From a virus, in IMG/VR virus record IMGVR_UViG_3300040811_000687: a DNA stretch of 64,000 nt; one strand, given 5' to 3'. Below the pieces are notes generated by a model that worked only from the letters and a program-made list of their open reading frames with translations, ran no database searches and was not told where the DNA came from. Position numbers and translations under genes: made by a program. This document shows positions 49,678 through 61,419 of the stretch, one piece after another; positions within the stretch are counted from its first letter, which is position 1; each line of letters begins with the position of its first letter.

Positions 49678-49685
49678 TATAAATA
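49678..49685 (+). promoter_or_regulatory. Late promoter of the 49745-59439 operon
   Basis: TATAAATA. Confidence 0.75.
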
Positions 49686-49744: not shown

Positions 49745-50965
49745 ATGTTTAATTTTAAAGGTTTCATAACTAAAGAAAAAAACACACATTTAGAACATCT
49801 AGAAGACGATATAATTAATAGAGGTTCAAAAGGTGGCGATAATGCTATAAAGTTTCTAAAATCAATTAGAAACATGCTGGTAGGGTCATCTGGTGCCAAA
49901 GTAAATATGTCTGTCAAATGGGATGGTGCGCCTGCTATTGTGTGTGGTGTCAATCCAGAAAACGGTAAATTCTTTGTTGGTACTAAATCTGTATTCAACG
50001 CAACTCCAAAAATCAATTATACACCAGGTGATATTAGAAGTAATCATAGTGGACCTGTTGCAGATAAACTAAACGTTTGTTTAAGAGAATTAAAAAAATT
50101 AAGAATTACAGGTATCTATCAAGGAGATTTACTCTTTACAAACGATACTAAAATACAAAATATAGATGGTGAGGCCATGATAACTTTCACACCAAACACA
50201 ATTACATATGCAACACCAGTAAACTCTACTCTAGGTAAAAAAATTAGAAGAGCAAGAATGGGAATAGTATTTCATACAAGTTATACAGGTAAAGACATGA
50301 AAAGTTTAGGTGCTGGATTTGGTACAATATCTGGTAGATCAGGATCATCGGCAGTATTTTTAGCAAGTGCTGGTTATACAGATACTTCCGGTTCATCAAC
50401 ATTTACTAGTGGTGAACTATCTAGATTTGACGCCTTAATTAGAATGGCAGAGGGATCACTTTCAAAAGCTGCAACAATATTAAATGAAATGTCAAGATCA
50501 ACTGATTCTTTATCAGTTGGTTTCAGACTAAAGTCTTTTTTTAATCACTATATTAGAAACACACAAGGCCATATGGGTAAGGTTAAACAATTACAAAAAA
50601 TGTTTAGAGATTACTACGAGAATATTTTAACGGAAGAAATAGCAAATAGAAAAACAGAAAAAGGTAAACAAAAGTATAGAGATATATTAGATACTAACTT
50701 AAAATTTATAGATAGAAACGAACAAGCATTATATTTTACCATAGCTTCTCATGTAAGTTTAGGTAATGCAAAGAACTTTCTAATTCAAAAACTATCTCAA
50801 ATACAAAGTATCGGACATTTTATTAGAACATCAAGTGGTTACAGAGTAACTAATCCAGAGGGTTATGTTGCAGTAAGTAGAGCTGCTGGTGCAATTAAAT
50901 TAGTAGACAGATTAGAATTTAGTAGAGCAAACTTTACTATTGCTAAAGATTGGGTAAAAGGATAA
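49745..50965 (+). CDS. Conserved marine-phage protein with ATP-dependent ligase-like motifs
   Basis: KNTHLEHLED, KWDG (motif I-like), QGDLL, EGYV, KLVDRLEFS; N-terminal FKGFITKE. Confidence 0.6.
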   Translation: MFNFKGFITKEKNTHLEHLEDDIINRGSKGGDNAIKFLKSIRNMLVGSSGAKVNMSVKWDGAPAIVCGVNPENGKFFVGTKSVFNATPKINYTPGDIRSNHSGPVADKLNVCLRELKKLRITGIYQGDLLFTNDTKIQNIDGEAMITFTPNTITYATPVNSTLGKKIRRARMGIVFHTSYTGKDMKSLGAGFGTISGRSGSSAVFLASAGYTDTSGSSTFTSGELSRFDALIRMAEGSLSKAATILNEMSRSTDSLSVGFRLKSFFNHYIRNTQGHMGKVKQLQKMFRDYYENILTEEIANRKTEKGKQKYRDILDTNLKFIDRNEQALYFTIASHVSLGNAKNFLIQKLSQIQSIGHFIRTSSGYRVTNPEGYVAVSRAAGAIKLVDRLEFSRANFTIAKDWVKG

Positions 50966-51570
50966 TGAAAACATTTAAACAGTACGTTACAGAGGTAGAT
51001 AACAAATATGTTTATGCAGTTGAACAACCAAAGATTGTTTTAATTGGTGGTCCAGGTTCGGGTAAATCTACTTATGCAAAATTTTTAGTAAAAGAATTTA
51101 ATATAAAACATATCTATCCTGGTGATTTATTGAGAGCAGAAAAGGCCAAAGGTGGTGATATTGCAGATAGATTATCTGATTTAGGTAAAGGTGGTTTTGC
51201 ACCTAATGATATTGTTTTAGAACTAGTATTCAAGGCTGTTGCAGAGGCGAAAGGTGGTTTTGTATTTGATGGCTTTCCTAGATATATGCAACAAGTAAGA
51301 GATTTACAACACAAAAAGATTAGCATAAACAATGTGGTCTTTCTAAATGTAAGTGAAAAGGAAGTTATTAGAAGATTGACTGCTAGAGGTCGGGCTGATG
51401 ATAAACCAGAAATTATAAAGAATAGAATATCTTTATATAAAAAAGAAACCGGTCCTGTAATTGATTATTACAGAGATAAACAAGGATTCATAGAAATAAA
51501 AGCTGAAGGTGGAGAACCGGAAGAGATAGCAAATACAATAATAAATAAGGTTAAAAATGAAAACATTTAA
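50965..51570 (+). CDS. adk: Adenylate kinase-like NMP kinase (short LID)
   Basis: GGPGSGKST, GDLLR, FDGFPR, RGRADD. Confidence 0.88.
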   Translation: MKTFKQYVTEVDNKYVYAVEQPKIVLIGGPGSGKSTYAKFLVKEFNIKHIYPGDLLRAEKAKGGDIADRLSDLGKGGFAPNDIVLELVFKAVAEAKGGFVFDGFPRYMQQVRDLQHKKISINNVVFLNVSEKEVIRRLTARGRADDKPEIIKNRISLYKKETGPVIDYYRDKQGFIEIKAEGGEPEEIANTIINKVKNENI

Positions 51571-51913
51571 ACAGTACGAAAACAAAGTAGAAGAAATTGA
51601 TTCTATTTGTGAAAATATGAAATACGATGACCTTGTGGTAGAAGAAGCCGAACATCAAGGTAAAAAAGTAAAATTAAATAACCCTACCAGATCAAATGAT
51701 GGTAAAAAGAAGTTTTACGTATATGTAAAAAATGAAAAGGGTAATATAGTTAAGGTTGGATTTGGTGATCCGAATATGGAAATAAAAAGAGACGACCCTA
51801 ATAGAAGAAAGAATTTTAGAGCAAGGCACAACTGTGCTAATCCAGGTCCTAAATGGAAAGCAAGATACTGGAGTTGTTATCAGTGGAGAGCTGGCGCTAA
51901 GGTGGACAATTAA
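51557..51913 (+). CDS. Conserved basic phage protein
   Basis: KKFYVYV...FGDPNM...RRKNFRARHNC...ARYWSC; MKTFKQY N-terminus. Confidence 0.7.
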   Translation: MKTFKQYENKVEEIDSICENMKYDDLVVEEAEHQGKKVKLNNPTRSNDGKKKFYVYVKNEKGNIVKVGFGDPNMEIKRDDPNRRKNFRARHNCANPGPKWKARYWSCYQWRAGAKVDN

Positions 51914-51924
51914 AAGGAGATATA

Positions 51925-52584
51925 ATGTATATAAAAGGTGGAATGAAAAAACTAGGCAAAGCAATAGCAAAATCTACTAAAGAGAGTTTAGATAGAGAAA
52001 TAGCTATCGCAGAAGAGGAACAAAGAATAATGGATGAAGAAAATGGTATCAAATTTCCTACAAATCCGGAAATAGACCAAACATATGAAGCGCCTGAACC
52101 TATATTAAATGAAGATAGAAAGTTAGTTGAGTTGGCTGATGGTTCAAAATTAGAAGAAATGTCAATCAAAGAAAAGATTGGTACATGGTCACATAATTTT
52201 AATCAATTAGACCCACACAATAAATTTTTCTACTTGTTAGAACAAGGTAAAGGTATCGTTGAACTAGATGATACAAAAAGAATAAATGGATATAGAATAT
52301 ACGGATGTGTTAGTCAAGTATGGGTATTGCCGTCACTAAAAGATGAGAAGATGATCTTTGAAGTAGACGCTGACTCACATGAGGCTAGAGGTGTAATGTA
52401 TATTTTACAATCAATATTTTCAGGTCACTCACCATCTGAAATTTTAGAAGTAACAGATCAAGAAATAATTGATATAGGTTTCTTTGAAACATTGAACGAA
52501 AAAAGACGACATGGTACTTTTGCAGTAGTCAATGCTATAAGAACATATGCCAAAGATATGGTTGAAATGTTATCAGGCGAATAA
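51925..52584 (+). CDS. SufE-family sulfur-acceptor domain protein with acidic N-terminal extension
   Basis: GCVSQVWV, DADSHEARG, SPSEIL, L...RRHG. Confidence 0.8.
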   Translation: MYIKGGMKKLGKAIAKSTKESLDREIAIAEEEQRIMDEENGIKFPTNPEIDQTYEAPEPILNEDRKLVELADGSKLEEMSIKEKIGTWSHNFNQLDPHNKFFYLLEQGKGIVELDDTKRINGYRIYGCVSQVWVLPSLKDEKMIFEVDADSHEARGVMYILQSIFSGHSPSEILEVTDQEIIDIGFFETLNEKRRHGTFAVVNAIRTYAKDMVEMLSGE

Positions 52585-52596
52585 AACGGAACAGCA

Positions 52597-53289
52597 ATGA
52601 AAAATTTACAAGAAGTAAAAGCATTTTTAAATGAGGGTGTCTATGACAAAGGCATTTTCAAGGCCTTCTTCTTGGCGGGAGGACCTGGATCAGGTAAATC
52701 TTTCGTTACGCAAACCGCTTTTGCCGGTATAGGATTAAAAGTAGTAAACTCTGATACAATTTTTGAAAGAGAATTGTTAAAAGCAAACATGTCACTAAAA
52801 ATGCCAGATGAGGAAGCATACTTTAGAGATAAGATAAGAGCAAAAGCAAAAGTTACAGCAGGTTCACAATTAGACGCCTATGTAAAAGGAAGATTAGGAC
52901 TTGTTATTGACGCAACAGGTCGTGATAAAACTGTTATCAGTAGACAATATTCTATGTTAAAAGCAATAGGTTATGATTGTTATATGATCTTTGTAAACAC
53001 AAGTTTAGATGTGGCCTTAATGAGAAATGAATTAAGACCTAGATCAGTGCCAGAATATCTTGTAAAGAATAGTTGGAACAAAGTACAATCTAATATAGGT
53101 TCTTTTCAACAAATATTCAGACCAAGTAATATACTAATTGTTGATAACAATAGATCAGAAAAAGAATTAGTAACCAATACCATTCAAACTGCTTCAAAAT
53201 ATATTAGAAGACAAATGAATAAACAGCCAGATAATTATCTAGCAAAACAATGGATAGCAAGAGAACTAGCAGCTAAGAAAAGAATATGA
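52597..53289 (+). CDS. P-loop kinase (zeta-toxin/AAA_33-like)
   Basis: FLAGGPGSGKS, VNSD..FE, VIDATG, FVNTSL..A..RN. Confidence 0.8.
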   Translation: MKNLQEVKAFLNEGVYDKGIFKAFFLAGGPGSGKSFVTQTAFAGIGLKVVNSDTIFERELLKANMSLKMPDEEAYFRDKIRAKAKVTAGSQLDAYVKGRLGLVIDATGRDKTVISRQYSMLKAIGYDCYMIFVNTSLDVALMRNELRPRSVPEYLVKNSWNKVQSNIGSFQQIFRPSNILIVDNNRSEKELVTNTIQTASKYIRRQMNKQPDNYLAKQWIARELAAKKRI

Positions 53290-55595
53290 TTAAAAAATTT
53301 AAAGATTATTTAATTAAAGAAAGTATCATAGATATACCTAGAAAAACATATGCTCCTGGTGTATTTGATAAGGCTGATAGTAAAGACCCTATAATAAAAC
53401 CTAGTGTCAAAAAACAAATACAAGATCAGATTAAAGAATTTGAAAAAGAATATCCTGTTATTAAGATAGCATTAATAGGATCAATACTAACAAAGAGATA
53501 TAGAAATGACGCTGATCTTGACATTAATGTATTGTTTGATGTGCCAAAAGAAAAACAAGAACAAGAAAGAGTTGATCTTTCTCAAAAGTATTTGTCAGCA
53601 AAGAACCCAAAAAATATTCAAGGTAAGTTAATACCTGGTACACAACACCCTATCAACTATTATTTTTTAACTGATCAATCAACTTATGATGATCAAAATA
53701 AAAAAGCAGACGCAGTGTTTGATATAGAAAACGATAAGTTTATTAAAAGACCAGACGACTTTACTTTTGATACAAACTTATATGTAAAAGAATTTGAAAG
53801 AAAAGTACAAGAGTTAGATGTAATTAAAGGTGAATTAAAAAGAGATATAATAGATTACAATGAATTAGTTGAATTACAACCAGATGATATCTTAAACTTA
53901 CAAGACAAAATTAATACAAAGTTAGAAGAAATAGAAGATAGTATTTCAGATATAATAAAGATAGGTGATGGTGTTGACGCAGAAAGAAGATCAGCATTTA
54001 ATAGTGATATGACACCAGATCAAATAAGAAAGTATGGTGTTAAAAATAGATTACCTAAAAATGTTATCTATAAAATGTTAGAGAAATACCACTATTTAAA
54101 ATTTTATAAAAAATGTAAACAGATTTTAGATGATGGTAAAGTTACAGACGATGAGATAAAAAGTTTGACTAACGAACAAATAGATGAAATGAATTTAGAA
54201 TCTATTGCTTCAGCATGGAACGACATAATTAGAAGAACAATTAAAGCACCTCAAATGAAAAGAGGTGTACAATTATATTTAAAATATTTAAGACAAGGTA
54301 TGAAAGACGCTAAGAACAAGGCGGCTCAACATGCTGGTATAGACTACAATGAATTTGGTAAGGCAGTTAGAGACGCTGGTTTACCTGAAGAAGTAAACGA
54401 AGAAATAAGAAGACCAAGAAAATCAGTTGCATTTACTTTTGGTAGATTTAATCCACCAACTATAGGACATGAAAAACTTATTAGAAAAGTTAAGTCAGTA
54501 AGAGCAAATGATCACAAAATTTATTTGAGTAGAAGTGAAGACAGTAAGAAAAATCCATTATCGCCAAGTCAAAAACTAGCGTATATGAAAAAGATGTTTC
54601 CTTCTCACGCAAGAAATATAGAGATTAATAAAACTAATATGATATTAGATATAGCTACTACTTTACATAATAAAGGTTATACAGAGGTGTTTATGGTAGT
54701 AGGCAGTGACAGAGTAAGTGAATTTACAACCATATTAAACAAATACAACGATGTAAAATCAAGACATGGTTACTATAACTTTGACAACATCAATGTATTA
54801 TCAGCAGGTGAAAGAGATCCAGACGCAGAGGGAGCTTCAGGTATGAGTGCAAGTAAAATGAGAGCTGCAGCTGCCAAAGACGATATAGGTTCTTTTAAGA
54901 AAGGTTTACCTAGTGGTGTAAACGCTGCTGATCTAATGAAAGATGTTAGAAAAGGTATGAGATTAGAAAATTTAGTTGATCAACCATCTACAAAAATGTT
55001 AACTATGGAACAATTTGATCAACAACAAATAAGAGACTTATATTTGAGAGATATGATATTTAATATCGGAGAAAAGGTAGACTATACCAAACAAGATATA
55101 AAAGGAACAGTTAAAAGAAAAGGTACAAACTATATTGTACTAGAAGATAACAATAATAATTTACATAAAGCCTGGATATGGGATTGTATACCAATCGCCA
55201 GTGATAAAGAGGTTGCAGTTAGAGAACATAATTTAAATGTAGACTATGGCTTTAAGGCTGTATCTGAAAAGAAATATAATAAGATATTTGCCGACTTAAA
55301 GAAAGAAATTACGATGAAATTAGAGAAAGAAGCACATGAAATAGGCGCCGATTATGCCAATCATACTAAAGAAGTAACACCTGGTGAGGTTCCAGAAGCT
55401 AAACCAGTTGACGCAAAAAAGAGAGGGTGGCCTACACAAGGTTACAAAGAGATTAAGACAGAGGAAATATCTGAAAAAGATGTAAATAATTGGGCAAGTG
55501 AAGCAGATACAATAGATAAATATAAACAAAGATTTAAGGAGGAGTGGAAAATCAAGTTAGATGAGGCTGTGGCCAAAATGATCAGAGACTTGTAA
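53286..55595 (+). CDS. Multidomain protein: Pol-beta-type nucleotidyltransferase + HxGH (cytidylyltransferase-like) nucleotidyltransferase + C-terminal domain
   Basis: IGS.......DADLDI; FGRFNPPTIGH...VGSDR...SAGERDPD...MSASKMR. Confidence 0.8.
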   Translation: MIKKFKDYLIKESIIDIPRKTYAPGVFDKADSKDPIIKPSVKKQIQDQIKEFEKEYPVIKIALIGSILTKRYRNDADLDINVLFDVPKEKQEQERVDLSQKYLSAKNPKNIQGKLIPGTQHPINYYFLTDQSTYDDQNKKADAVFDIENDKFIKRPDDFTFDTNLYVKEFERKVQELDVIKGELKRDIIDYNELVELQPDDILNLQDKINTKLEEIEDSISDIIKIGDGVDAERRSAFNSDMTPDQIRKYGVKNRLPKNVIYKMLEKYHYLKFYKKCKQILDDGKVTDDEIKSLTNEQIDEMNLESIASAWNDIIRRTIKAPQMKRGVQLYLKYLRQGMKDAKNKAAQHAGIDYNEFGKAVRDAGLPEEVNEEIRRPRKSVAFTFGRFNPPTIGHEKLIRKVKSVRANDHKIYLSRSEDSKKNPLSPSQKLAYMKKMFPSHARNIEINKTNMILDIATTLHNKGYTEVFMVVGSDRVSEFTTILNKYNDVKSRHGYYNFDNINVLSAGERDPDAEGASGMSASKMRAAAAKDDIGSFKKGLPSGVNAADLMKDVRKGMRLENLVDQPSTKMLTMEQFDQQQIRDLYLRDMIFNIGEKVDYTKQDIKGTVKRKGTNYIVLEDNNNNLHKAWIWDCIPIASDKEVAVREHNLNVDYGFKAVSEKKYNKIFADLKKEITMKLEKEAHEIGADYANHTKEVTPGEVPEAKPVDAKKRGWPTQGYKEIKTEEISEKDVNNWASEADTIDKYKQRFKEEWKIKLDEAVAKMIRDL

Positions 55596-55606
55596 TACAC
55601 CGTACT

Positions 55607-57259
55607 ATGACTAAATACAGAAAAACAATGGCAGAAGCCTGGAACGAGGCAAATTTAATAGAGAGTGGTCTAATGGGAACTATGACCGATACTCAATTAG
55701 CAAACATCAAAAAAGTGTGGGCTAAAAAGACTATGAGAGACGTAACACCAGGCATAAAAAGTATGCTTGATAAAATGGATATGCCAACTAAAGTTGCTGT
55801 AAAACATGCTGGTATTAATATTCTTTCTAAAATAGTATTAAAAGATGAAGTAGATATGTCAGTTGATGTTTCAGAAACATACACTGTAGTTATCACTAAA
55901 AAAGATGGTTCAAAAATGGAACTAGGCAAGTATAATACTCCTGCTGAGGCACAAAAATATGTTGACATGTATGGTAAAGGTGCTAAGATTAAAAAAGAAG
56001 AACTTCAAGGTCAAAAAGAAAAGAATAAAGACGAACTAGAAGAAGGCAAAATGTCAGACATTGACGCCATGCAAAAAGATGGTGCCTCTGCTAAAGACAT
56101 TGCTAAAGCATTAAAGATTTCAGTAGCAACAGTTAAAGATATACTAGGCGAAGACGAACAACAAAACAAAGAAGATTTAGAAGAGTCTTTTAGTCCTGCT
56201 ATGTTACAAAAATTAAAAACAGAATTTGGTCCTTTAAAAGGCAAAACTATTACAGCTGCTAGAGCAAAACAGTTGATGAATATTTTAGACAAATTAAAAG
56301 ATAAAGATTTAGAAACTTTAAAAGGTGCAGGTATACCTTTTGTTTCTGGTGGTGCAATGTCTAAACTGTCAGTAAGAAAAATGAAATTCAAAGTAACTAC
56401 AATTACTCCTTTCGGAGAAGAAACAATTGAAGAATCTTATACAGTAAAATATGTAGACCCTTTAAATAAAAAGAACTTACGTATGAAACATGCTAATGAA
56501 AAAGACGCTCAAGATATGATGGATAGATTAAAAAAAGCTGGCGTTAAAGATATTAAAGTCGTAAAAGAAGAAGACGCTTACGATAAAGATGATGAGAAAC
56601 CAAAAAAACCTAAACCTAAAAAAGAAGATTTAGACGAGGATTCATTTGAAGAAGCATGTTGGGTAGGTTTTAAACAAGTAGGTATGAAAGATAAAGGTGG
56701 TAAACAAGTACCTAATTGTGTACCTGAAGAAAACGATTTAGACGAAGAAGTATTAGATGAAATGGCTGCTTTAAGAAAAAAAGCAGATAAGTCTGGTATA
56801 TCGTATAGTATTCTAAAGAAAGTATTTGATAGAGGTATGGCTGCTTGGAAAGGTGGTCACAGACCAGGTGCAAGTCAGCACCAATGGGCTTACGCTAGAG
56901 TAAATTCATTTATCACAAAAGGTAGTGGTACATGGGGTGGCGCAGATAAAGATTTAGCTAAACAAGCAAGAGGTCAAAAAGAAGACCTTGACGCAGTGCC
57001 ACAAGATAGAGACGTTAAGAAAAAAGATGGTACTCAACCTAAAAAATACTATAAAGGTTTAAGTAAAGATGTTAAAGACGCAAGAGCTTCACACTTTAAG
57101 AACAATGATTCTAACAAAGAGGCACCAGGAGATAAAGAAGCAAAAACTAAACCATCTATTCACACACAAAAATATAAAAAGATGTATGGTGAGGGTGCAA
57201 GAGAATTAGTATTAAAATTTTTAAAACAAAAAATGCAAACTTCCAAGGAGGAAAAATAA
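55607..57259 (+). CDS. Modular charged polyprotein, probable internal head protein
   Basis: Small modules separated by LEE/IEE/LDE linkers: HTH-like, CWVGFKQVG..VPNCV, RGMAAW..GHRPG..QWAYARVNSF. Confidence 0.65.
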   Translation: MTKYRKTMAEAWNEANLIESGLMGTMTDTQLANIKKVWAKKTMRDVTPGIKSMLDKMDMPTKVAVKHAGINILSKIVLKDEVDMSVDVSETYTVVITKKDGSKMELGKYNTPAEAQKYVDMYGKGAKIKKEELQGQKEKNKDELEEGKMSDIDAMQKDGASAKDIAKALKISVATVKDILGEDEQQNKEDLEESFSPAMLQKLKTEFGPLKGKTITAARAKQLMNILDKLKDKDLETLKGAGIPFVSGGAMSKLSVRKMKFKVTTITPFGEETIEESYTVKYVDPLNKKNLRMKHANEKDAQDMMDRLKKAGVKDIKVVKEEDAYDKDDEKPKKPKPKKEDLDEDSFEEACWVGFKQVGMKDKGGKQVPNCVPEENDLDEEVLDEMAALRKKADKSGISYSILKKVFDRGMAAWKGGHRPGASQHQWAYARVNSFITKGSGTWGGADKDLAKQARGQKEDLDAVPQDRDVKKKDGTQPKKYYKGLSKDVKDARASHFKNNDSNKEAPGDKEAKTKPSIHTQKYKKMYGEGARELVLKFLKQKMQTSKEEK

Positions 57260-58113
57260 TGAGTTATTTAAAAAATAAGCCAAACTCTTTAGAAGATATG
57301 GCAAAACAAATGCAGATACACACTAATGAATCTGATTACAAAGATAAGTTTAAAAAAGAATTAGACAAAGCCGGCAAAGGTATAGGTTCTATGACGCCAA
57401 AAGAAAAAAAAGATTTTTTTAATAAGATAGACAAAATGCATACGGCAAAAACAGAAAACGTTAAAGAAGAAGTTAATTGGACAGAAGCTGCTGAAGAACA
57501 AGAGAAAAGATCAGACGAAGCTAAGTATTATAAACCTGAAGAAGTTGAAGAAGCAACATATGGTTGGACTTTAGTTTCAAAAGCAAAAGATATTGCTAAA
57601 AAATTCAAAGATAATATATCAAAAGCTGTGGCAGAAATAGAAAAAATAGAAAAAGGTTTATCTAAAAATCCTACAGTTGACGCAGAGTTAAGAAAGTACA
57701 ATGAAAATTTAGAAGAAAAATACGAAGAAAAAGAAAAAAAAGATGATAGCTCAAAGGAAAAAGAACTAAAGATCAAACTAGATAAAGAAAAAGATACAGA
57801 CGCTTTAGAAAAACAGAATATAACTTTACAAGGTCAAGTCAATATTCTGAAACAAAAATTAGAAAACGAAAAGAATAAAGCTCTTAAGCCAGCACCTAAT
57901 AAAGATACAGGCGAAGTACCTTTATCTGTTGGTATTGCTTACAAACATCTAAAAGATAAGATGAAAACTGAAGCTGCTAAGTATAAAAAAGAACAAAAAA
58001 AAGACGAAACTCAAACTAGAGATCAAGAAATGGCAGACCCTAAAGGTAAAACTGATACAGGCCAGCCTAAAACTCCAGTTGAAATGAATCCAAAAATTAA
58101 CCACTCGTTTTAA
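57259..58113 (+). CDS. Lys/Glu-rich probable internal head protein
   Basis: Highly charged; VKE/VEE/LEE sites; KKDFFNKIDK module. Confidence 0.55.
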   Translation: MSYLKNKPNSLEDMAKQMQIHTNESDYKDKFKKELDKAGKGIGSMTPKEKKDFFNKIDKMHTAKTENVKEEVNWTEAAEEQEKRSDEAKYYKPEEVEEATYGWTLVSKAKDIAKKFKDNISKAVAEIEKIEKGLSKNPTVDAELRKYNENLEEKYEEKEKKDDSSKEKELKIKLDKEKDTDALEKQNITLQGQVNILKQKLENEKNKALKPAPNKDTGEVPLSVGIAYKHLKDKMKTEAAKYKKEQKKDETQTRDQEMADPKGKTDTGQPKTPVEMNPKINHSF

Positions 58114-58124
58114 GGAGAATATAG

Positions 58125-58952
58125 ATGGCGTGGGTAGATATCGCAGGATTAAAAAATACATTTGAACATTCAGAGGAGTTTAACGACTCTTATTGGACAA
58201 AAAACGAATGTACTATTACTGCTAATGCTACAACAGCACCAGACGGTACTCTAACAGCTGATAAACTAACAGAAAGTGCAACTGCTAATAAGGGACATAG
58301 TGTTAGTAGATATGTCGGTGGTAGTGGTACTACAAACGGTTGCTCTTATAGTGTATATGTGAAACCAGATACACGAACTAAATTCGCTATAGGTTTAGCT
58401 TTTAGTCCAGATAGTCTAACAGTTAATGCAAAATTTGATTTAACAGCAGGTACAGTTATTAGCAAAGGTAATCCTTATGGTCATGCTGTAACAGAGGCCT
58501 CTATACAAAAAATTGGTGATGATGGTTGGTTTAGATGTATTATACAAAATGGAACAAGTGGAGGAGCTTTTAATCCTAGTTGTTATCTAACAACAATGGA
58601 CGACAGTAATGACACCACGCCAGCTTCAGGTTCAGGAAGTATTTTTATCTGGGGTGCAATGTGGCAATTAGAACATGAAACTGTTGTTAATGGTACTAAC
58701 GCTGGTAGATATGTTTATAGTGGTGGTTCTTCAGGTGTTGAAGGAAGTTTATGGCAATATGAAAATGCTGCTACAGCAGCTAATACATATCCTGATTCCG
58801 CTGACGGTGCAAACTCAACTGTGTCTGGTGGAATAAGAACACACACAAGACCAGGAACTAGTGCTGTTACAAAAACATATTTAAGAACTAGAAAAAAAGG
58901 AACTACAGTTGAGAGAGGTGAGTTGTCACATACTTACTATCATGGACAATAA
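58125..58952 (+). CDS. Virion protein with a carbohydrate-binding/fibre-type domain
   Basis: SEEF..SYWTK..TITANATTAPDGTLTADKL...GWFRC...IFIWGA module; AAGGAG RBS. Confidence 0.55.
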   Translation: MAWVDIAGLKNTFEHSEEFNDSYWTKNECTITANATTAPDGTLTADKLTESATANKGHSVSRYVGGSGTTNGCSYSVYVKPDTRTKFAIGLAFSPDSLTVNAKFDLTAGTVISKGNPYGHAVTEASIQKIGDDGWFRCIIQNGTSGGAFNPSCYLTTMDDSNDTTPASGSGSIFIWGAMWQLEHETVVNGTNAGRYVYSGGSSGVEGSLWQYENAATAANTYPDSADGANSTVSGGIRTHTRPGTSAVTKTYLRTRKKGTTVERGELSHTYYHGQ

Positions 58953-59439
58953 AAAAACAAGAATATATTGTGACATGGATGGTGTCCTTTGCGACTTTGT
59001 AAAGGGTGTTGAGAAACTACATGGTATAACTATTAATAACTGGTCATACGGAAGTAAAACTGAAAAGTGGGCTAAAGTAAAAGCAACACCTAAATTTTGG
59101 CATACGTTACCATGGCATACTGGTGGTAGACAACTCTGGTCTTTCATATCAAAGTATAAGGCACATATACTATCAGCATACGTAGAGGAAAGTTTTGATC
59201 CTAATTGTATACCAGGCAAGACACATTGGGCAAGAACAAATTTAGGTATATCAGGTAATAGAATTAATCTAGTTAAACGAGTGCAAAAACAAAATTACGC
59301 AAGGGTCATGGGCAGTCCTGCCATTCTAATAGATGACTATAAGAAGAATACAGATCAATTTAAAGCAAAGGGTGGTATAGGCATACACCATACAACAGTA
59401 GGTAACACTTTAAGAGAGTTAAGATCACTAGGTTTCTAA
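58942..59439 (+). CDS. HAD-family 5'(3')-nucleotidase-like phosphatase
   Basis: IYCDMDGVLCDF, ILS, GK..W, LIDD, GGIGI.H. Confidence 0.85.
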   Translation: MDNKKTRIYCDMDGVLCDFVKGVEKLHGITINNWSYGSKTEKWAKVKATPKFWHTLPWHTGGRQLWSFISKYKAHILSAYVEESFDPNCIPGKTHWARTNLGISGNRINLVKRVQKQNYARVMGSPAILIDDYKKNTDQFKAKGGIGIHHTTVGNTLRELRSLGF

Positions 59440-59450
59440 CTTATTTCCGT

Positions 59451-59458
59451 TATAAATA
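59451..59458 (+). promoter_or_regulatory. Late promoter
   Basis: TATAAATA. Confidence 0.75.
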
Positions 59459-60880: not shown

Positions 60881-61004
60881 ATCATTCATAAAAGAAGAAG
60901 ATTTAAAAGACTTTGAGGAAGATTGTTTAGCAGGCAAAAAACCTGTTAAACAACCGACCGAAGAAACAGAAAAAAAGGAAACTAAAGAAGATGAAAACAT
61001 TTAA
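60867..61004 (+). CDS. 45-aa acidic peptide with capsid-targeting-like N-terminus
   Basis: MKKFKSFIKEEDLKDFEED...ENI; overlaps both neighbours; not in the ORF track. Confidence 0.55.
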   Translation: MKKFKSFIKEEDLKDFEEDCLAGKKPVKQPTEETEKKETKEDENI

Positions 61005-61419
61005 GAAGTACTTAAACGAACAACATGGAATAGGCGTTGGTACACCGGAAGTTAACTCTGTAGAAGATGGTAGCATTGGTGTTCACAATATACATGATCC
61101 TGAAGTTTTAAAAAGAGTAAATGCTTTTGTGGGATCAATAGGCGAAAGAGAATACATTAAACCAGGTTTTGCAATTGACGAGCTGAGAACAAAATTATCT
61201 AAAATAGGATTAGAAGTTAGTCCTTGTGCTATGGATGGTGACAGCGGAACAGTTAATTGTGAAGTTACTGCTTACGGCGGAAGATTTGGTAAAGATATAG
61301 ATGGTTCTGATATTAATGATGATGGTATATCACACAAAAAAGAGGGTGGCCTTAAACTAGAGGTTAAGTACGAAACATTAAAAACAGGAACATCAAAAGT
61401 CTACGCTAAATTAGTATAG
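60991..61419 (+). CDS. Conserved hypothetical protein
   Basis: MKTFKKYLNE...RVNAFVG...YGGRFGKD. Confidence 0.65.
   Translation: MKTFKKYLNEQHGIGVGTPEVNSVEDGSIGVHNIHDPEVLKRVNAFVGSIGEREYIKPGFAIDELRTKLSKIGLEVSPCAMDGDSGTVNCEVTAYGGRFGKDIDGSDINDDGISHKKEGGLKLEVKYETLKTGTSKVYAKLV

Follow-up and report, generated by a model that had tools for sequence, protein, structure and literature searches.

ATP-dependent RNA ligases (Rnl2/REL1, the Rnl5 enzyme NgrRnl, Rnl1/Trl1 and Rnl3) carry a KxDG lysine at the end of a strand, with motifs III, IV (EG) and V (K) following on further strands. In bacteriophage T4, such a ligase (Rnl1) is encoded together with Pnkp, which supplies a P-loop kinase and a HAD phosphatase. 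T4 also produces the internal proteins IPI, IPII and IPIII and Alt, each with an N-terminal leader of about 10 residues, aromatic at positions 4 and 7 and ending in (L/I/V)xE. Here, a 64,000-nt DNA window of the virus record IMGVR_UViG_3300040811_000687 (IMG/VR), derived from a T4-like marine myovirus with all genes on the + strand, was analysed with respect to a block of ten open reading frames (ORFs) at 49745–59439 (Table 1). The block begins with a DUF6267 (PF19782) gene and also contains a gene for an adenylyltransferase with an HxGH motif. We present evidence that DUF6267 is a probable RNA-ligase-type enzyme paired with the HxGH protein. The block as a whole is read, with somewhat better than even confidence, as a late-made, virion-packaged enzyme set around this pair in a relative of Pelagibacter phage HTVC008M.

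Sequence motifs and family of DUF6267

In the translated DUF6267 protein, KWDG was located at residues 58–61, QGD at 126–128, EGYV at 372–375 and a further lysine at 385. The first-pass annotation, made from the sequence alone, had compared these with motifs I, III, IV and V of covalent nucleotidyltransferases. In an alignment of 101 relatives (34–48% identity), H18, K58, D60, G68, P71, F77, Y155, G173, H177, G373, K385 and N396 were invariant, and G61, Q126, G127, D128, E372, V387, D388 and R389 were conserved in at least 90% of the sequences; the four motifs are thus real and represent the most conserved positions of the protein. The family is large, with 2709 representatives at 50% clustering, and was found in 469 phage records; Synechococcus-phage records with DUF6267 number 369. 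A full-text literature search returned no paper mentioning DUF6267.

Against Pfam, PF19782 was the sole match of the window protein, with no significant match to PF01068, PF09414 or PF09511; among the 101 relatives, four matched PF09511 weakly (best E 6e-4). By these profile matches, DUF6267 is outside every defined ligase Pfam family. Searches of PDB sequences with phmmer and profiles gave spurious low-complexity matches only (eS8, coiled coils), and a search of the ESM Atlas retrieved unnamed viral clusters only. In profile–profile comparison, the EGYVAV...K segment was aligned to T4 Rnl1, with E372, G373 and K385 on E227, G228 and K240 at the same 13-residue spacing, so that the distance between motifs IV and V equals that of T4 Rnl1. 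Using hhalign against T4 Rnl1 alone, T4 gp30 alone or a set of 30 Rnl1 members, only this motif IV–V segment was recovered, also with relaxed settings and alternative alignments. The homology of DUF6267 to ligases therefore rests on fold and motifs.

Directly after the N-terminal leader, the protein contains the segment HLEHLED (residues 15–21; H15-x-x-H18-x-E20), in which H15, H18 and E20 are invariant. To our knowledge, this segment has no counterpart in RNA ligases; one possibility is an added element that binds a metal or a nucleotide. In many cyanophages (Syn9 gp183, S-RIM2, S-RIM8, S-SSM7, ACG-2014a/b), the match to the window protein was limited to residues 13–181, or the protein was about 110 aa shorter. 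From these alignments, the helical insertion described below and the C-terminal part look variable or highly divergent in parts of the family.

Structural comparison with ligases

An AlphaFold2 model of DUF6267, built from the alignment of relatives (pLDDT 90.7, pTM 0.87), consisted of a beta-rich core (residues 54–207 and 357–387) and a five-helix insertion (222–351), with residues 1–10 disordered. The KxDG lysine was placed at a strand end, Q126-G127-D128 in strand 124–131, E372-G373 at 373–378 and K385 in 382–387, which is the canonical order. A structural search with the model against 48,161 representative chains returned RNA ligases as nine of the 11 best matches (172–199 residues aligned) at Z 6.2–7.5, all below 8, where the tool warns that values can mean a common arrangement only. 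By enzyme, the scores were 7.5 for REL1 (1xdn, 193 aa), 7.0 and 6.9 for Trl1, 7.0 for NgrRnl, 6.6 and 6.5 for T4 Rnl2, 6.4 for T4 Rnl1 and 6.2 for Rnl3; by chain, they were 7.5 (1xdn), 7.0 (9r3w), 7.0 (5cot), 6.9 (6n0t), 6.6 (1s68), 6.5 (2hvq) and 6.4 (9do4). DNA ligases ranked below the RNA ligases in the same search (Z 5.0–5.7). Despite the moderate scores, the top matches were drawn from a single superfamily, and in a Foldseek search of viral models (BFVD) RNA ligases were listed, weakly, directly after the members of the DUF6267 family.

Only 21 residues follow K385, among them a single helix (389–398), and an OB-fold domain after motif V was found neither in the sequence nor in the model. 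Owing to this lack of an OB domain, which RNA ligases share, RNA ligases fit better than DNA ligases or capping enzymes. An identity as capping enzyme or DNA ligase was ranked low for the same reason. DUF6267 differs from the RNA ligases in that a helical bundle (about 130 aa) separates motif IIIa from motif IV as an insertion, whereas ligases append an N- or C-terminal domain, and furthermore in its HLEHLED segment and its N-terminal capsid-targeting-like leader.

Several results weigh against a ligase assignment. Motif III reads QGD instead of the DGE-like sequence of ligases, and motif V has one lysine instead of two. The motif residues were placed by strand, and a single pocket lined by them would be a prediction. 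Foldseek of the model against the PDB gave nothing meaningful (carbonic anhydrase and CorA noise), and the hhalign match to the 30-member Rnl1 alignment spanned 21 residues (P 0.027, probability 1.8%). On balance, the model and the conserved motifs make it likely, in our assessment, that DUF6267 is a divergent lysine nucleotidyltransferase of the RNA-ligase type. The structure check of the protein encoded at 49745 thus bore out the ligase-like domain proposed earlier, at moderate Z. The ligase-superfamily assignment is new for a major viral DUF, which would constitute a previously unrecognised branch of the lysine nucleotidyltransferases (RNA/DNA ligases, capping enzymes).

A related reading takes DUF6267 as the missing DNA ligase of Kyanoviridae-type phages, replacing T4 gp30, with the nicotinamide mononucleotide adenylyltransferase (NMNAT)-like partner supplying or regenerating the adenylyl donor (NAD+ or ATP-derived). 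No match to PF01068, PF01653, PF09414 or PF09511 was obtained in the complete genomes of HTVC008M, S-WAM1, S-PM2 and S-SZBM1, four relatives tested in place of the window's own genome, whereas the T4 control matched three of these families. Among non-cyanophage core genes, gp30 is included in a published list (PMC5349666). Matches to gp30-like proteins were found in 2644 phage records, with Synechococcus phages outside the ten commonest organisms (<63 records), as against the 369 with DUF6267. The DUF6267 gene also follows on gp43-UvsX-gp41, the order gp43, UvsX, gp41, phrog_1462 protein and DUF6267 being common to the window and HTVC008M. We nevertheless regard this reading as improbable, since DUF6267 lacks the OB domain and ends about 20 residues past motif V, RNA ligases outscore DNA ligases, and a late-promoter motif and a capsid-targeting-like leader (see below) are ill-suited to a replisome enzyme. 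In addition, a DUF6267 match occurs in a Stenotrophomonas phage record, and Stenotrophomonas phage DLP6, which may or may not be the same phage, is reported with gp30.

Association with the HxGH adenylyltransferase

The 769-aa protein combines an N-terminal Pol-beta nucleotidyltransferase (NTase) domain (PF01909 at residues 48–98, domain about 42–105, GS..DADLD intact) with the HxGH domain (CTP_transf_like at residues 384–488, domain about 376–560, containing PPTIGH; PF01467 E 7.6e-6). The HxGH motifs FGRFNPPTIGH and GMSASKMR are conserved. Foldseek matched the HxGH fold to NadM (2qjo), phosphopantetheine adenylyltransferase (PPAT) and NadD with probability 1.0 (E about 4e-6), in line with the domain type proposed by the first-pass annotation. 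As in NadM/NadD (NMNAT) and CoaD (PPAT), a Rossmann-type fold is combined with (T/H)xGH and SxSxxR-like motifs; unlike these enzymes, the protein carries the N-terminal Pol-beta NTase and extra conserved C-terminal domains, and the HxGH domain scores too low to pass the NCBIfam cut-offs for the NMNAT and PPAT equivalogs. It was assigned by fold as a PPAT/NMNAT-like adenylyltransferase, a fold that does not specify the substrate.

The DUF6267 and HxGH genes are adjacent in HTVC008M, S-WAM1, S-PM2 and S-SZBM1, with the order DUF6267, 'cytidyltransferase' and a protein of 450–590 aa in the latter three. Natural fusions of DUF6267 and HxGH were found in both orders, with clean linkers at the junctions and in some cases including DUF5824. 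Examples are the 591-aa S-PM2 protein (BFVD A0A0M6VVW4) and a 1325-aa metagenomic protein (P0251), in which RimK ATP-grasp and Zn-protease domains follow behind DUF6267 and HxGH. Conserved adjacency and fusions indicate that DUF6267 is functionally tied to the HxGH enzyme. In the older S-PM2 record (NC_006820, 6013–7792), DUF6267 is split and its C-terminal part is joined to the cytidyltransferase ORF; since the 591-aa fused protein exists, this record probably carries a frameshift.

Beyond this pair, conservation was limited. HTVC008M, the closest cultured relative (Kyanoviridae; DUF6267 49% identical), also has the P-loop kinase (53%), the 118-aa protein (61%) and the HAD protein (39%), and its comparison showed no Adk, SufE or Pol-beta domain. 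The cyanomyoviruses S-WAM1, S-PM2 and S-SZBM1 keep DUF6267 and HxGH with no kinase or HAD of the block. From these gene contents, the co-conserved core is DUF6267 and HxGH, with DUF5824, and the rest is accessory: Adk, SufE and the Pol-beta domain are lineage-specific, and kinase and HAD are common only to HTVC008M. Of the gene neighbourhood expected from the first-pass annotation, the DUF6267–HxGH pair is therefore conserved, and the remaining set is not, nor are kinase and HAD beyond HTVC008M.

These data bear on the pathway originally suggested, in which the block would be cytoplasmic: kinase and HAD would heal RNA ends, DUF6267 would seal them, and Adk and the NTases would restore ATP and NAD, comparable to T4 Pnkp/Rnl1 against anticodon nucleases or NADases. 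As in T4, one phage encodes a P-loop kinase, a HAD phosphatase and a ligase-like enzyme. The DUF6267 fold is nearest to RNA ligases, tRNA-repair enzymes among them, the HxGH fold is nearest to NadM/NadD/PPAT, the kinase shows weak affinities to polynucleotide kinase (PNK) and PSTK (phrog_505 E 3.5e-8, TIGR03574 E 3e-5), HAD motif I is intact, and kinase and HAD also lie near DUF6267 in HTVC008M. Unlike in Pnkp, separate genes with about 5.6 kb between them encode kinase and HAD, the HAD protein best matches deoxyribonucleotidases, and BLAST of the kinase against T4 PseT aligned the P-loop only (E 0.038); the resemblance to Pnkp is limited to the P-loop and the DxD motif, and an action on RNA ends is conjectured here from the genes. 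The triad is not co-conserved, as the cyanomyoviruses retain DUF6267 and HxGH alone. The operon moreover holds unrelated genes, and late-promoter control would be odd for an early-acting defence unless the proteins were packaged. Such a pathway is accordingly considered unlikely. What stands of it is the ligase-type fold and the tie to HxGH, whereas the triad, the Pnkp likeness and an exclusively nucleotide-related content were not borne out.

Probable late transcription unit

Eleven copies of the T4 late-promoter octamer TATAAATA were located in the window (1446, 1455, 9245, 14446, 15131, 19040, 33572, 33743, 48231, 49678 and 59451), all on the + strand and all intergenic. The copies at 49678 and 59451 bracket the ten-gene block exactly, neighbouring genes of the block overlap or are separated by no more than 12 nt (in the sequence TAATG, for instance, the stop codon of DUF6267 runs into the start codon of Adk), and no terminator-like site was found on the + strand inside the block. 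Given the tight junctions, the bracketing octamers and this lack of an internal terminator, the block looks like a single late transcription unit as far as can be read from sequence, in keeping with the operon of the first-pass annotation.

N-terminal leaders and probable virion packaging

Four enzymes and one small protein of the block begin with leader-like N-termini (Table 1), whereas the HAD and SufE-like proteins do not. These leaders resemble those of T4 (ipII/ipIII MKTYQEFIAE, ipI MKTFKEF) and have aromatic residues at positions 4 and 7, the two positions that matter most in the T4 capsid-targeting signal (PMC9026906). A strict leader pattern was matched by five ORF N-termini of the window, with 0.1 expected from shuffles, and by none of 516 other Met positions. 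Of 150 diverse DUF6267 representatives, 41 carried it, as against none of 120 T4 Rnl1 relatives, and across the divergent DUF6267 family the leader takes the form M(K/I)(S/T)F(K)Q(F/Y)(L/I)xE. In the corresponding census of HxGH homologues, most sequences were truncated fragments, which say little about leaders.

The gene starts at 50965–50984, 51557–51576 and 60991–61010 share the 20-nt sequence ATGAAAACATTTAAACAGTA with 0, 0 and 2 mismatches, 0.09 matches being expected by chance. In T-even phages, the genes of internal proteins have conserved leader DNA, which is thought to permit cassette exchange, and the shared starts found here recall this arrangement. A leader of the same type, MQIPKFRDYITE, was observed at the start of a RimK ATP-grasp and Zn-protease fusion (PF08443 and PF05618; 38169–39650, +).

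A T4 head module is present in the same window (gp21-type prohead protease PF03420, scaffold protein and gp23). The block thus recalls the T4 internal proteins in its leaders, in leader DNA conserved between genes, in its late-promoter motif and in the presence of a gp21-type protease. It departs from them in that the putative cargo consists of sizeable enzymes (Adk, kinase, NTases, ligase-like protein) and not of small basic proteins.

The HxGH protein is homologous to the virion-associated cyanophage 'cytidylyltransferase'. A cytidylyltransferase/NMNAT-like homologue was detected in virions of S-SZBM1, S-CREM2, S-SCSM1 and S-CBWM1, together with the downstream neighbour in S-SZBM1 and with ORF155 and ORF156 in S-CREM2, and the authors propose that the cytidylyltransferase enters the host (PMC9146016, PMC10665884, PMC9602691). 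Packaging shown by experiment concerns these cyanophage HxGH homologues. Combined with late-promoter control and T4-like leaders, this argues for virion packaging, and it is probable that several of the enzymes encoded in the block travel within the virion.

Other observations count against packaging. Promoter and leader are motif matches with predicted functions, and no exact TATAAATA precedes the DUF6267 copy of HTVC008M. The DUF6267 leader of the window ends in ITKE and not in a clean (L/I)xE, although exact forms occur in many relatives. DUF6267 is not in the S-SZBM1 virion proteome list, although its neighbour was found there, and ORF153, possibly a DUF6267 gene and directly upstream of the S-CREM2 cytidylyltransferase, is likewise unlisted. 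The authors of these proteomes further note a possible carry-over of abundant proteins.

The most conservative explanation would be that of mere neighbours in a late region, with the shared N-termini as translation-initiation or recombination-linker sequences and DUF6267 as a structural or morphogenetic factor no longer needing catalysis, as may be compared with T4 Rnl1/gp63. The block does mix structural and enzymatic genes, three starts are identical in DNA as recombination linkers would be, and T4 Rnl1 is annotated both as RNA ligase and as tail-fibre attachment catalyst. This explanation is judged very improbable, as the candidate catalytic residues of DUF6267 do not vary among more than 100 divergent relatives, HxGH fusions recur in both orders, and the leader keeps aromatics at the T4-critical positions and an (L/I/V)xE site across very divergent DUF6267 members.

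Proposed mechanism

In the favoured explanation of a late-made, packaged enzyme set, the leader-bearing enzymes would be synthesised late, each with a propeptide at its N-terminus that resembles the capsid-targeting sequence of T4. They would then enter the prohead, be trimmed by the phage gp21-type protease and be released with the DNA into the next host cell. The core module would consist of DUF6267 and the PPAT/NMNAT-like HxGH adenylyltransferase. DUF6267 would form a Lys58-nucleoside monophosphate (NMP) intermediate and pass the NMP to a phosphorylated end or acceptor, and its HxGH partner would make or recycle an adenylylated small molecule. Adk, P-loop kinase, Pol-beta NTase, SufE-like and HAD proteins would be lineage-specific additions and not fixed steps of one pathway. 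A counter-defence role of the block is possible.

A bolder version, to which only a small probability is assigned, would make DUF6267 and HxGH a self-supplying sealing module and the sole ligase of Kyanoviridae-type phages: HxGH would produce NAD+ or another AMP-X as the adenylyl donor that charges Lys58 of a new class of ligase, and the capsid-borne pair would repair nucleic-acid ends of phage or host at the very start of infection.

Gene content of the block

All ten ORFs were characterised by profile searches, and the domains named by the first-pass annotation (ligase-like, Adk, P-loop kinase, Pol-beta, HxGH and HAD) were all recovered, the last five with intact catalytic signatures (Table 1). 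The catalytic signatures GGPGSGKS, GDLLR and DGFPR are intact in Adk, as is the catalytic signature of the P-loop kinase, which matched AAA_33 (E 4e-10), Zeta_toxin (E 8e-8), phrog_505 'polynucleotide kinase' and TIGR03574 (PSTK). The SufE/CsdE-like sulfur-acceptor domain is preceded by a 90-aa N-terminal extension and is not common to HTVC008M. DUF5824 is fused C-terminally to cytidylyltransferase in other phages. The head-spike-fibre gene is located between the enzyme genes and the HAD gene. Four genes (SufE-like, helix-turn-helix (HTH)/DUF5824, the protein with no match and head-spike-fibre-like), which the first-pass annotation had left out, do not encode nucleotide enzymes, and the block is not purely a nucleotide toolkit. 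A megablast search of the whole block against phage records gave no match.

Table 1 Features of the ten-gene block and its flanks, with positions in the 64,000-nt window
Feature	Position	Strand	Matches and remarks
T4-type late-promoter-like TATAAATA, head of block	49678–49685	+	1 base past upstream stop (49677), 60 nt before ATG
DUF6267 (PF19782), 406 aa	49745–50965	+	E 9e-120; leader (residues 1–11) MFNFKGFITKE; candidate RNA-ligase-like lysine nucleotidyltransferase
Adenylate kinase (Adk), PF00406, short-LID type	50965–51570 (ORF from 50950)	+	E 8e-34; likely start ATG 50965; leader MKTFKQYVTE
118-aa protein, phrog_7595	51557–51913	+	No assigned function; first 20 nt same as Adk start (MKTFKQY...); 61% identical to HTVC008M protein
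SufE-domain protein, PF02657	51925–52584	+	Domain at residues 91–207; no leader
P-loop kinase, AAA_33/zeta/PNK-like group	52597–53289	+	Leader-like MKNLQEVKAFLNE; 53% identical to HTVC008M protein
Pol-beta NTase and HxGH adenylyltransferase, 769 aa	53286–55595	+	Leader MIKKFKDYLIKE; conserved beta domain and C-terminal tail
HTH and DUF5824 protein, 550 aa	55607–57259	+	Profile matches
284-aa protein	57259–58113	+	No family match in profile searches
Phage head spike fibre domain protein (structural), 275 aa	58125–58952	+	NF048003 GTA_spike_fiber, 95.9 bits vs cut-off 36; phrog_5939 tail protein
HAD-type phosphatase, 5'(3')-deoxyribonucleotidase-like	58909–59439	+	phrog_2643 E 8e-27; motif I CDMDGV; likely ATG 58942; no leader
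Next late-promoter-like TATAAATA	59451–59458	+	Marks end of the transcription unit
142-aa protein	60991 (start)	+	Leader MKTFKKYLNE; from leader search in the window

Implications

From the 11 intergenic TATAAATA sites, candidate late transcription units of the window can be mapped directly. Few unannotated genes are as widespread in marine T4-like phages as DUF6267, and these phages otherwise show no recognisable ligase; its assignment to the ligase superfamily opens a direct biochemical test and offers a possible explanation of how nucleic-acid ends are joined in these phages. The leaders suggest that marine T4-like phages may load real enzymes (Adk, kinase, nucleotidyltransferases and a ligase-like protein) into their capsids. 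If this is true, packaging would explain the recurrent 'cytidylyltransferase' in cyanophage virion proteomes, and the T4 internal-protein idea would be widened to include, beside small anti-restriction proteins, a metabolic first-strike kit.

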